Shown here: piece after piece, positions 21,598-43,008 of the stretch
How positions within the stretch are numbered: position 1 is the first letter of the stretch
Layout of the letters: the number at the start of each line of letters is the position of its first letter
IMG/VR virus record: IMGVR_UViG_3300037780_000034
Coordinates: 224,001-288,000 of that record
Source of the DNA: a virus
Lineage: Duplodnaviria > Caudoviricetes
Direction: 5' to 3' (one strand)
DNA: 64,000 nucleotides
Program-made: the position numbers and the translations under genes
The notes under the pieces: model-generated
What the model saw: only the letters and a program-made list of their open reading frames with translations
Database searches by the model: none
Told to the model about the DNA's origin: nothing

Positions 21598-22482
21598 ATG
21601 ACCAAAAGAGTAAACTATTTAAACAACAGAGAAATATTAAAGCAATTACATAACAGTAAAATGAGTTTTTGTTATATAGAAGATAAAAAATATTTTTATT
21701 ATGATAATATTGTAGACGATCTTTCAGAAATGACACAAGATAAAATAAAAGAAACATTAGAAAATAAAGAAAAAAGACTGATATATGCAAAATATGAAGA
21801 TGCTGTTAAATTATGGGAAAAAGAAAATAACAGATCAAAATTAAAACCAAAACTATCACAATTTTCAGTAACACAAGAAGAAATTGATAGCACTCCACTT
21901 GTAATTCGTGTAATGTGTTTGGATCATATACCGATAAGTCCGCGAAAGAAAAATCCAAAAAATGAAATAGACAAACACATAAGATGTAATTTTCCTCCAT
22001 TTAAACATTATGCTTTGGAAAATTCCGTATGGAGAGAAGTAGTGCGTTCACATTGGGATGGAGATTTAGAAACTGGAACTTTTTCTCTTATAAAAGGAAA
22101 AGTAAACGACAGACTCGGCAAAATGATGATGATGCTGGTAGATAGATATGCAATGAGAGCAAATTTTAGAGGATACACATATCTTGAAGAAATGAAAGGA
22201 AATGCATTATTACAATTATCAAAGTTTGGATTGTATTTTGATGAAAGTAAAAGTTCAAATCCTTTCTCGTATTTTACTACCACTATTAACAATGCATTCT
22301 TAGGTGTATTAAACAATGAGAAAAAAGTTCAAAATATTCGTGATGATTTACTTCAAGACAACGGATATATGCCAAGTTATACTCGTCAATTCAGTGATGA
22401 AAAAAATCAGCAAGATGCTCGAAAATTAGATTATGAAGCACGTATAATGGAAGAACAAAAAAATTTAGGAATTAATGGATAA
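21598..22482 (+). CDS. gp55: Late-transcription sigma factor, T4 gp55-like
   Basis: RYAMRANFRGYTYLEEMKGNALLQL...FDESKSSNPFSYFTTTINNAFLGVLNNEKK matches the gp55 core. TATAAATA motifs precede the structural genes. Confidence 0.85.
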   Translation: MTKRVNYLNNREILKQLHNSKMSFCYIEDKKYFYYDNIVDDLSEMTQDKIKETLENKEKRLIYAKYEDAVKLWEKENNRSKLKPKLSQFSVTQEEIDSTPLVIRVMCLDHIPISPRKKNPKNEIDKHIRCNFPPFKHYALENSVWREVVRSHWDGDLETGTFSLIKGKVNDRLGKMMMMLVDRYAMRANFRGYTYLEEMKGNALLQLSKFGLYFDESKSSNPFSYFTTTINNAFLGVLNNEKKVQNIRDDLLQDNGYMPSYTRQFSDEKNQQDARKLDYEARIMEEQKNLGING

Positions 22483-24196
22483 GTTAGAAGAAATAAAAAG
22501 ACTTTCGCAGATAAAAAGTCTCAGAACAATTCATATTAAAAACAGTATATTCGGAAATATTATATTTCCGAATACTATTAATAATGCCAGACAGATGTTA
22601 TGGCATATAATTAATGATACTATGGAAATTCCAAAGTGTCCAATATGTTCTAATGATTTAAGTTGGCATCCTGACAAGAGAGATTATAGAAAATTTTGCA
22701 GTAATAGTTGTAGTGCATATGGCACTGCTGAAATATCAAGAAAAACTTCTGTTGAAAAATATGGAGTAGATCATTATAGTAAAACTGATGAATTTAAAAA
22801 ATCTGTTAAAAAAACTTCTATTGAAAAATATGGAGTAGATCATTATAGTAAAACTGATGAATTTAATAAAAGAACTATCAACACAAATAAGAAAAAATTA
22901 GGTGTTTCTTATCCAGCCCAATGTGACAGTATAATAAAAAAGATGAAATCATCTAATATAGAAAAATATGGGGTTGATGTTTACTCAAAAACCCCAGAAT
23001 TTAAAGAAAAATTTAAATTAAGTTCTATTGAAAAGTATGGAACTACTCATCCTATGCATTTGGTAGAAATAAAAGAAAAAGTAAAAGATACAAATATCAA
23101 GAAATATGGTGAAGAATATCCATTACAGAATAATAATATTTTAAATAAATCAATACAAACAAAAAGAAAAAATTATTATTCGCAAGATGTATTACAGAAA
23201 CTAGATAATCCGGAATGGTTAAAAAACGAACATAAAACAAAAACTATATTTCAAATTTCAAAAGAGTTAGGTGTTTCTAGTAGCAATTTAGGAAAATACT
23301 TTGAAAAATATGGAATAGAAATAAATTATATTAATTCACAATCATCATATTCCGAATTAGAGATAATAAATTTTATAAAAGAATTAGGTGTTACAAATAT
23401 AGATACAAACAATAGATCAATCATATCACCAAAAGAAATTGATATTTATTTAAAAGATTATAATATAGCAATTGAGTATAATGGAGTTTATTGGCATAGT
23501 GAAAATCAAGGAAAAACTAAAAATTATCATTTAAATAAAACGTTAGAGTGTGAAAGTAAACAAATACAATTACTGCATATATTTGAAAATGAATGGAATG
23601 ATCCTATTAAAAATCAAATATGGAAAAGTATGATTAAGTCAAGATTAGGATTATCTAAAAAAATATTTGCAAGAAAATGCATATTTTCAAGTATATCAAC
23701 GAAAGAAGCAAAAAGCTTTTTAAATGAAAACCATCTTGAAGGCTTTGTTGGTGGAACTCACAAATATGGATTATTTCACAATAATGAATTAGTCCAGTGT
23801 ATGATATTATCAAAAAGCAGATTTAATTCAAACTATGACTATGAGTTAATAAGGCTTGCAACAAAAAAAGATTTTCTTGTAGTTGGTGGCATAAGTAAAC
23901 TTTTACATAATATTCCAATTACTGGTTCTTTAATAACATATGCAAACAGAAGATTTTCTGTTGGAAATTCGTATTCTTCACTGGGTATGAAACCGCAAAA
24001 GTCATCCCCTCCAAATTTTTATTATACTAAACCAAATTCTATGATGTTAGAATCAAGACAAAAATATCAAAAACATAAACTAAAAAATATTTTATCAATA
24101 TATAATAGTAATAAAACAGAATGGGAAAATATGTCGGAAAACGGATATGATCGCATATGGGATTGTGGCAATTTGGTATTTACATTTGAACTATGA
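22475..24196 (+). mobile_element. Free-standing homing-endonuclease-like gene, copy 1 (Zn-finger, 23-aa KYG repeats, HTH, Vsr/DUF559-like nuclease, GNAT-like C-terminus)
   Basis: CPIC...FCSNSC; about six (E/K)KYG repeats; IFQISKELGVS HTH; SYSELE...IDIYL...AIEYNGVYWH...LLHIFENEW nuclease motifs; ELIRLA...GGISKLL...ITYANRR...GNSY C-terminal domain. Inserted between gp55 and gp47 with an 8-nt overlap. Confidence 0.7.
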
Positions 24197-41561: not shown

Positions 41562-43008
41562 CGAAATAATACAAAAGATAAAAAATATTATTGTAGAAAA
41601 TCCTAAAAATTATAGTAAAATAATTAAAAAACACAGTGACTTATATAATTGGGTTTTAGAAAACAAAAAAACCGACAATGAAAAAGTATCTGCACAAATA
41701 TATAGTGCAATACATTCTATAAGTGATGTGTGCAAGTATAATAAAGTTAAAAAGTTTGATAGATGGTCATCAGGATTTGTAGGATGTGGTCCTGCATCTG
41801 TTTGTGATTGCACGAAAGAAAATATATCATCTTCTGTAACAAATACAAAGTCAAAGTTAACACTGGACGATATAGAACAATCAAACAACAAAAGAATAAA
41901 AACTATGAACGAAAAGTATGGAGTTTCTTATAATTCACAAAGAGCAGAAGTAAAACCTATATTGAAAAAATCAAAATTATCAAATACCACACATAAAATT
42001 CTTAGTGATTATGATTGGTTGTATACTGAATACGAAACTAAAAAAAGAACAAGTGTTGATATAGCAAAACAGTTAGATGTTCACAATTCAACTGTTATAG
42101 AATATTTAAAAAAGAATGATTTTCAAATACGTCAATATTCTAATTATTCATTGGAAGAATTAGAGATACAAGATTTTTTAAAAAGTTTGGGTATTGATTT
42201 TATAGAAAATGATAGAACTGTTCTGGATGGAAAAGAATTAGATATTTATATTCCAAATAAAAACATTGCTTTTGAAATAAATGGATTGTATTGGCATTCA
42301 TATGGAAAAGCAGATATAGAAAAAACAGATTTTCATTTATATAAAACAGAAAAATGTCAAGAAAAAAGCATAAGTTTGTTACACATTACGGATTGGGAAT
42401 GGAACAACAAAAATGATATAATAAAATCTATAATAAAAACAAAACTAGGATTAAACAAGCGTATACCTGCAAGAAAATGTGTATTGAAACAAATAGATAC
42501 AAAAGATGCAAAAACATTTTTTGAAGAGAATCATTTACAAGGATTTATAGGAGCAACTAACTATATAGGATTAATATATGATAACGATCTTGTTATGTGT
42601 ATGAGTTTTGGAAAAAATAGGTTTGGAGAAGGAGTTGAACTCTATAGGTTAGCAAGCAAACAAGGTATAACAGTAATTGGCGGTGCAAGCAAAATAATTA
42701 AATATTATACAAAAACATATAACATAAACAATATAACAACATATTGCGATTATTCTAAATCATATGGAAATGGTTACAGAAAAATGGGGTTTACTTATAT
42801 GGGAAAAACCAAAGTAAACTATTTTTGGACAGATAAAAGAAGTATAATACCAAGATATAAAACGCAGCATAGTAATATAAAAAAAATAATTGGCGATTTA
42901 TATGATCCAAATTTAAGTGAACGTGAAAATATGATGAATGCTGGATTTAGAAGATATTGGGGATGTGGAAATTTAATATTTAAATATAATAAAATATCTG
43001 ATAAATAA
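41554..43008 (+). mobile_element. Homing-endonuclease-like nuclease-GNAT fusion, copy 4
   Basis: More divergent, with a single KYG repeat, AFEINGLYWH and VELYRLAS...GGASKII...TTYCD...GNGY. The likely start is ATG 41554 (MSDEIIQKI). Confidence 0.7.

Follow-up and report, generated by a model that had tools for sequence, protein, structure and literature searches.

Hef-type homing endonuclease genes with a Mom-like C-terminal domain in an uncultured T4-like jumbo phage

This study concerns a 64,000-nucleotide stretch of viral DNA (positions 224,001 to 288,000 of the IMG/VR record IMGVR_UViG_3300037780_000034), referred to here as the window, and in particular four genes on its plus strand, located between positions 22475 and 43008, that encode a Vsr-like nuclease fused to a C-terminal domain resembling GNAT acyltransferases. 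The complete record of 317,722 bp, of which the window is a part, represents an uncultured T4-like jumbo phage of low guanine-plus-cytosine content (~30%). The four proteins are very probably encoded by Hef-type homing endonuclease genes and carry a genuine domain of the lineage of Mom, the DNA-modifying enzyme of phage Mu. Taken together, the data are probably best explained by free-standing selfish homing genes of the Hef family, in which the C-terminal domain (below, the tail) is a fixed part of the architecture and belongs to the Mom branch. The identity of the domains, the number of copies, the conservation of residues and the presence or absence of the genes in related phages were read directly from the sequences. 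Positions are those of the window unless the complete record is named.

RESULTS

Membership in the Hef family

The family 'homing endonuclease' of the PHROG collection (PHROG 3339) matched all four proteins, with E-values between 1e-102 and 1e-141. Copy 1 was found to be 36.7% identical to Hef of phage U5 (AY262133), the prototype of the family, over 90% of the length of copy 1, and the C-terminal 190 amino acids (aa) of U5 Hef matched the profile of the tail with an E-value of 1.8e-49. Hef of this T4-related phage is reportedly the subject of a 2005 study by Sandegren, Nord and Sjoberg. The homology between U5 Hef and the window copies extends over the whole length and takes in both the nuclease and the C-terminal domain. 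According to a review, U5 hef cleaves the nrdB region (PMC2988022).

The tail alone was detected at 873 places in 342 sequenced phage records, where the corresponding proteins are labelled 'homing endonuclease', 'Hef-like' or 'hypothetical' and never Mom. Campylobacter phages possess 9-11 copies per genome and PA5oct-like Pseudomonas jumbo phages five. A search of 1.84 billion library representatives with the tail returned 15,829 clusters at E <= 0.001, and among the top 150 cluster matches the tail was nearly always found at the C-terminal end of a protein of 450-620 aa. No standalone version of the Hef-type Mom-like domain was found, and the two short matches that were checked (P0059 and P0084) were contig-end fragments with the reading frame open upstream. 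A nuclease fused to a Mom-like tail is the usual arrangement in the Hef family and has already been published. Two metagenomic relatives, P0006 (829 aa) and P0010 (1039 aa), contain two separate matches to the Mom-like domain in a single protein; these could be fused tandem Hef-like genes or the result of read-through in gene calling.

Like the window copies, the Hef-like genes of T4-like, Campylobacter, Dickeya, Acinetobacter, Klebsiella and PA5oct-like phages are intergenic, free-standing and often present in multiple copies, some phages carrying 5 to 11 of them. Those of Dickeya phages include F-LimIII, VII, VIII and X. The window copies differ from these known genes in several respects: they are new and divergent, no entry of the phage collection reaching 60% identity to them, they vary in the number of KYG repeats, and three are arranged head to tail with 8-nucleotide overlaps. 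Moreover, a count of 11 for a single genome is at the upper end. A megablast search with the region of this triplet against sequenced phages returned no close relative. Klebsiella phage KP27, for which an 'unknown DNA modification linked to homing endonucleases' has been noted, was considered as a further carrier of Hef-like genes and set aside, as the genes in question encode HNH proteins of 173 and 213 aa.

Copies in the window and in the complete record

The four paralogues are real open reading frames (ORFs) on the plus strand, intact and sharing 30-59% identity when aligned from end to end, which agrees with an earlier note on this DNA, made from the sequence alone, that had described four full copies of a nuclease-GNAT family. 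The complete record contains 11 intact Hef-type copies with 0 internal stops, corresponding to ~6% of this jumbo phage genome. The same note had counted a fifth, partial copy between 22475 and 43008. This did not hold, since the sole other match in the window lies at 63565-64000 and belongs to a gene that is intact in the genome (463 aa, 287565-288956 of the complete record, Mom-like domain included); its partial appearance is thus an artefact of the window edge. The features of the five copies are as follows. The six letters given for each tail are the equivalents of H58, R111, S124, D149, R151 and Y159 of Mu Mom, in this order, and the Pfam family Mom is PF25680, with a gathering threshold of 27.1 bits, against which the tails were searched alone.

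22475..24196, plus strand: copy 1, Hef-type homing endonuclease gene, 573 aa; ORF; phrog_3339, E 2.4e-141
aa 55-79 of copy 1, just upstream of the KYG array: Zn-ribbon CxxC...CxxxC (motif positions)
22757..23314, plus strand: copy 1, KYG-type repeat array (DUF7487) and helix-turn-helix; Pfam DUF7487, E 2e-28
23354..23653, plus strand: copy 1, Vsr-like (EDxHD-type) nuclease; E321, D323, E334, H341, H352, K355
23654..24193, plus strand: copy 1, predicted Mom-like GNAT domain (P0002); H R S N R Y
37940..39754, plus strand: copy 2, 604 aa, first of the head-to-tail triplet, just 3' of the major head protein gene
38906..39199, plus strand: copy 2, Vsr-like nuclease
39200..39751, plus strand: copy 2, predicted Mom-like GNAT domain (P0003); H R S D T Y; Pfam Mom 38.7 bits, E 1.1e-9
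39717..41561, plus strand: copy 3, 614 aa as listed; ORF
40713..41006, plus strand: copy 3, Vsr-like nuclease
41007..41558, plus strand: copy 3, predicted Mom-like GNAT domain (P0004); H R S D T Y; Pfam Mom 32.8 bits
41518..43008, plus strand: copy 4, 496 aa as listed; ORF
42154..42444, plus strand: copy 4, Vsr-like nuclease; E240, D242, E253, H260, H273, K276
42445..43005, plus strand: copy 4, predicted Mom-like GNAT domain (P0001), the one modelled; H R S D S Y; Pfam Mom 20.9 bits
63565..64000, plus strand: fifth copy, N-terminal part, cut by the window end; tblastn matches 63724-63999

Translation of copy 2 likely begins at the ATG at 37946. The starts assigned to copies 3 and 4 by the ORF finder (39717 and 41518) are probably artefacts, because the proteins read from the ATG codons at 39747 and 41554, each of which forms an 8-nucleotide overlap with the stop before it, line up with the beginning of copy 2. 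The apparent 'ENVNGYG' N-termini of copies 3 and 4 correspond to the conserved C-terminus of the preceding gene, read out of frame. Both start/stop overlaps (39747-39754 and 41554-41561) consist of the identical 8-nucleotide sequence ATGNNTGA, which joins the three tandem copies, and at both junctions the ~60 bp of surrounding DNA are nearly identical.

Insertion sites

Copy 1 is flanked by the genes for a late sigma factor (gp55-like) and an SbcD-like protein (gp47), and both labels were verified. These two genes are neighbours in all 64 related viral contigs (64/64), and in 62 of the 64 the gap between them measures 12-223 bp. Only in the closest relative is the gap occupied by a Hef-like gene, which shares 55% identity with copy 1. 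In this relative, L083 (IMGVR_UViG_3300002220_000549), the gene lies ~1.8 kb upstream of gp47 and in exactly the same gap as copy 1, an occupancy that fits inheritance of one site or repeated homing into it. At the second site, 3' of the major head protein gene, a Hef-like gene was found in one of the ~50 relatives with enough downstream sequence, namely, L005. The gene concerned (L005:6735-8162) is on the minus strand relative to the capsid gene and is 43% identical to copy 4, which suggests that it represents an independent invasion of the same hotspot. Such presence or absence at intergenic sites is the pattern of free-standing homing endonuclease genes, and the absence of the genes from these same sites in relatives is what mobile homing genes would be expected to show.

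Domain organization and nuclease

The proteins consist, in this order, of a helical N-terminal part with a four-Cys Zn-ribbon, KYG repeats, a helix-turn-helix (HTH), a nuclease of ~100 aa and a C-terminal domain of ~180 aa. There are one to seven KYG-type repeats per protein, with a single one in copy 4, and those of copies 1-3 were matched by Pfam DUF7487 with E-values of 1e-28 to 1e-31. A full-length AlphaFold2 model of copy 4 had a predicted local distance difference test (pLDDT) score of 93.1 and a predicted template modelling (pTM) score of 0.64, being confident inside the domains and leaving their arrangement not fixed.

Clear similarity was found between the nuclease and the catalytic domain of I-Bth0305I: a family profile built from 39 sequences matched 3r3p_A with an E-value of 2.4e-10 (43.4 bits). 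In Vsr, D51 is a ligand of Mg2+ and H69 is the general base. The EDxHD (Vsr-like) homing endonucleases, among whose members Hef-type enzymes have been listed, have I-Bth0305I (PDB 3r3p) as their prototype, and its crystal carries the substitutions D196A and H213A (PMC3239194). In the profile alignment the Asp and His of the family fall exactly on these two alanines, which fixes their catalytic equivalence. All 11 genomic copies retain the nuclease residues E, D, E, H, H and K, which are also found in 137-149 of 151 full-length family members (E in 142, D in 148, and the His of the Y-W/Y-H motif in 149). The nuclease motif proposed in the earlier note was accordingly recovered, in the form E-x-D ... 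A-x-E-x-N-G-x-Y-(W/Y)-H ... H..K ... E/D-W. However, I-Bth0305I differs from the Hef-type proteins in being intron-encoded, in using DNA-binding modules of the NUMOD type and in ending at the nuclease, without a Mom-like tail. In addition, at the position of its D222 (Vsr D97) the Hef-type proteins have a conserved His (137/151) instead of an Asp, although there is a gap in the loop alignment that makes this equivalence uncertain.

Assignment of the C-terminal domain to the Mom branch

Several approaches agree in predicting that the C-terminal ~180 aa adopt a GNAT fold and genuinely belong to the Mom branch. Two tails, those of copies 2 and 3 (38.7 and 32.8 bits), exceed the gathering threshold of the Pfam family Mom, whereas that of copy 4 remains below it (20.9 versus 27.1 bits) and that of copy 1, searched alone, gave no match. 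Among 50 diverse family members, the Pfam family Mom was matched by 24 (E <= 0.01) and was the only family to recur. An AlphaFold2 model of the copy 4 tail, built on the alignment of these 50 members, reached a pLDDT of 95.0 and a pTM of 0.83. When this model was compared with the PDB using Foldseek, the crystal structure of Mu Mom (8bv8) was the best match (ranks 1-2, E 2.5e-7), followed by more than 150 further chains of GNAT acyltransferases at E <= 0.001. With VIA, an independent aligner, 207 chains were retrieved at Z >= 8, and among the matches listed almost all were GNAT acyltransferases; GNATs aligned with the model at Z-scores of 11-13.5 and Mom at 13.0, on a par with the best. The alignment with Mom was the longest, spanning 147 residues (model 8-187) versus ~126-134 for other GNATs, and it reaches past the common GNAT core.

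Sequence searches of the PDB were less informative. The tail profile of 50 sequences found glyphosate N-acetyltransferase (E 0.017) and missed Mom, and phmmer with the copy 2 tail as a single sequence gave insignificant GNAT matches only (E 0.3-0.8), again without Mom. The link to Mom therefore rests on Pfam, on hhalign and on the fold searches. In hhalign the family profile matched Mu Mom with an E-value of 0.0032, and the confidence of the columns was high around D149-Y159.

The resemblance to GNAT and Mom that the earlier note had drawn from sequence patterns was borne out by the Pfam matches of copies 2 and 3, by the top rank of 8bv8 and by the longest VIA alignment, and the structure prediction that it had proposed as a check returned a GNAT fold and not a non-GNAT fold. 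The domain is retained in every copy, as had been claimed for the four complete ones, and its motifs were recovered as ARK, NHL, EL.R, G(G/L).SK, (Y/F).(D/N) and GN.Y...G(F/M).

Tail and Mu Mom are nevertheless far from identical. Mom is the best structural match of the tail, beyond the GNAT core, and the equivalents of its H58, E108, R111, S124, D149 and Y159 are largely conserved. Sequence identity, however, amounts to ~12-16%, and Mom stands alone with its regulator Com, whereas the Hef-type tail is fused to a nuclease. The first ~35 residues of Mom and its dimer residue W48 are missing from the tail, Y59 is lost and R151 is found in about half of the members. A prediction of a complex of two copies of the tail gave scores of 0.02 and 0.05 versus a mark of 0.42, which weighs neither for nor against dimerization.

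Conservation of the predicted active-site pocket

Information on the function of individual residues is available for Mu Mom, for which structure-guided mutagenesis has identified R111, S124 and R151 as essential and H58, Y59, D149, Y159, W48 and W181 as important (PMC13219725). The same residues were discussed in another study with a numbering offset by 10 (PMC7261163). The hhalign alignment paired H30 of the family with H58 of Mom, R68 with R111, S82 with S124, D102 with D149, and Y111 with Y159. In all four window copies the equivalents of H58, R111, S124 and Y159 are H, R, S and Y. Among the 151 full-length members, the equivalents of H58 and R111 are invariant (151/151 each) and that of Y159 is kept in 146/151, while the position of D149 is occupied by Asp in 120 and Asn in 27, and that of S124 by Ser in 114 and Thr in 4.

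In the loop that would hold the donor (beta4-alpha3), copies 1 and 4 have G-G-x-S-K and copies 2 and 3 have G-L-x-S-K, and among the 50 members the two glycine positions of this loop are kept in 48/50 and 47/50 and its K/R position in 50/50; the GNAT motif A, Q/R-x-x-G-x-G/A, is only partially matched in this loop. Across the 11 paralogues, mean identity was 40.5% for the Mom-like domain and 42.1% for the nuclease, as compared with 22-31% for the N-terminal parts. In these alignments the pocket residues and the donor loop appear to be kept at least as well as the catalytic residues of the nuclease, a comparison that is biased in favor of the tail, as the 151 members were recruited with the Mom-like domain as the query. 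Because of this residue conservation, and because the tail is as conserved as the nuclease, the pocket is under strong constraint, which does not guarantee strict Mom-type catalysis for the four window copies.

The complete set of Mu Mom residues is present in three genomic copies outside the window (h1, h2 and h10). Two others deviate at the position of S124 while keeping all nuclease residues. In h4 (G000:C1:205119-206219 of the complete record, minus strand), this residue is Thr, the Asp is replaced by Met and the N-terminus is short (366 aa), and in h11 (297052-298839, plus strand) it is Gly. These two may be decaying copies or nuclease-only copies.

DISCUSSION

Proposed mechanism and published precedent

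In the mechanism that we infer from these domains and from the family, a long DNA site would be read by the Zn-ribbon, the KYG repeats and the HTH, and the Vsr-like nuclease would then cut this target. When a co-infecting relative without the gene is cut and repairs the break, the gene would be copied into it, as may be expected from the family. The tail would be an adenine-N6 acyl- or aminoacyltransferase that works on this same DNA, using a charged tRNA as donor as Mom does, and a mark on the sites of the carrier genome would block their re-cutting, a cut-and-protect arrangement that would serve homing. That the tail is an active adenine-N6 acyl- or aminoacyltransferase, working at or near its own target and conferring self-protection on the carrier, may be the case with a likelihood that we place just under even. 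A more specific version, in which Hef-type proteins are single-chain 'cut-and-momylate' enzymes that use charged tRNA to place an aminoacyl-derived adenine mark inside their own long recognition site, is rather unlikely in our view. If it were true, the carrier would owe its immunity to a site-specific epigenetic mark instead of the usual polymorphism of the target site, and these proteins would be the first homing endonucleases with a built-in protective DNA modification as well as the first case of a tRNA-dependent DNA modification aimed at single sites.

The chemistry invoked here is that of Mu Mom. It was shown that this enzyme transfers glycine from Gly-tRNA(Gly) to the N6 of adenine in double-stranded DNA, which is followed by an on-base rearrangement, so that deoxyadenosine is converted to N6-carbamoylmethyl-deoxyadenosine (Silva et al. 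2026, PMC13219725). The idea of cutting and protecting by one protein is already in print. Iyer, Anantharaman, Krishnan, Burroughs and Aravind described in 2021 fusions of Mom to restriction endonucleases (Mom-REase fusions) in jumbo phages, five of them in PA5oct, and proposed in their account of these fusions that momylation shields the phage while the nuclease attacks other DNA (PMC7824862). The five tail places that we found per PA5oct-like genome tie the PA5oct enzymes described there to the Hef family. Architecture and cut-and-protect proposal are the same as those considered here; the difference is that the fusions are interpreted in that account as part of a conflict resembling restriction-modification, with no mention of Hef-type homing in the sections on these enzymes.

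Alternative explanations

The most serious alternative to an active tail is that it is catalytically inert, an exapted GNAT module that binds DNA or a flipped adenine, or that positions or dimerizes the nuclease, in which case the protein would cut without modifying. We consider this a realistic possibility that falls somewhat short of an even chance. A number of observations point in this direction and weigh against Mom-like activity and, in part, against the relationship to Mom itself. A complete set of the Mu Mom residues occurs in no window copy (0/4). The equivalent of Y59 is Leu or Ile in every copy and always aliphatic (Leu, Ile or similar) among the 50 members, and at the position of R151 copies 2 and 3 have Thr and copy 4 has Ser, Arg being found in copy 1 alone among the window copies, in 5/11 genomic copies and in 24/50 family members. 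Copy 1 in turn has Asn in place of D149, with an N-R-R pattern as in U5 Hef. The equivalent of S124 is replaced in ~22% of members and in 2/11 genomic copies, the nuclease motif remaining intact. The corresponding substitutions in Mu Mom are severe, as R151A had no detectable activity, S124A was dead and the activity of Y59A was drastically reduced (PMC13219725). The invariant H, R and Y could reflect binding alone, given that R111 was proposed to contact the substrate base and not the donor (PMC7261163). The failure to find any standalone version of the tail, the two short matches being fragments at contig ends, is also in keeping with an inert module. To this are added the low hhalign probability against the single Mu Mom sequence (9.9%) and the recruitment bias of the 151-member comparison mentioned above. 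On the other hand, the G-G-x-S-K donor loop is strongly kept, which would be superfluous for a module that merely binds DNA, H and R are invariant in 151/151 members, and h1, h2 and h10 retain the full complement of Mu Mom residues.

The remaining alternatives are less probable. That the proteins are primarily weapons similar to restriction-modification systems, in which the Mom domain protects the phage DNA globally, the REase degrades host DNA or that of competitors and homing is secondary, is improbable in our estimation, even though this is what the account of the five PA5oct fusions proposed (PMC7824862) and both the five tail places of PA5oct-like phages and the 11 copies of the 318-kb phage are compatible with it. 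Presence or absence at precise intergenic sites is a hallmark of free-standing homing genes, and the long, modular DNA-reading heads imply rare and long targets, which are unsuited to bulk degradation or to protection of an entire genome. Furthermore, U5 Hef was reported to cleave near its own locus (PMC2988022), and databases label the family as homing endonucleases throughout. The presence/absence data thus favor homing over the conflict-system reading that Iyer et al. gave of the PA5oct enzymes.

It is very improbable that the tail binds acetyl-CoA, either to regulate the nuclease or to acetylate a protein. The GNAT fold, the many acetyl-CoA enzymes among the structural neighbors and the reported in vitro binding of acetyl-CoA by Mu Mom (PMC7261163) would be in line with such a role. 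However, Mom, the closest relative, has been reconstituted with Gly-tRNA(Gly) as donor and double-stranded DNA as acceptor (PMC13219725), and the tails match the canonical Q/R-x-x-G-x-G/A motif only in part, with G-G-x-S in some copies and G-L-x-S in copies 2 and 3. Since the Mu Mom donor is Gly-tRNA(Gly), the acetyl-CoA proposals of the earlier note now appear outdated, and tests with acetyl-CoA would probably miss the relevant donor.

The reading that we favor remains that of selfish Hef-type homing genes with a fixed tail of the Mom branch. The earlier interpretation stands in so far as a GNAT/Mom tail is kept in every copy; its further suggestion that the proteins are more than ordinary homing endonucleases was not sustained, as the tail is standard in the Hef family, U5 Hef included, and the pattern of presence and absence is an ordinary one.

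Significance

As far as the locus itself is concerned, the outcome is the correct annotation of selfish homing genes that belong to a published family and carry a published domain fusion. The question of the Mom-like tail concerns the whole family, and is neither new nor confined to this locus. Some 16,000 protein clusters, and several hundred phages with sequenced genomes, possess a domain whose Mom-type pocket residues are invariant and which databases label only 'homing endonuclease'. Its role can now be tested directly, because the Mom reaction has been reconstitutable with Gly-tRNA(Gly) since 2026, and U5 Hef in the T4 system would be the easiest choice. If the tail modifies DNA, site-specific hypermodification would add a new layer to the biology of homing endonucleases.

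Other features of the phage genome

The phage genome encodes 24 tRNAs, including a tRNA-Gly(UCC). The latter was considered as support for tRNA-dependent chemistry and rejected as uninformative, large phages commonly carrying sets of tRNAs. One of the tRNAs identified by ARAGORN, located outside the window at G000:C1:138544-138617, has a CUA anticodon (listed as tRNA-Pyl) and is a potential amber suppressor; it is part of a cluster of 22 tRNAs at 137-150 kb of the complete record. Within the window, positions 33982-34863 encode a protein of 293 aa that is extremely acidic and consists of Asp/Glu/Met-rich repeats. It is located between the genes of the portal region and a prohead protease-like gene and is unrelated to the Hef copies.

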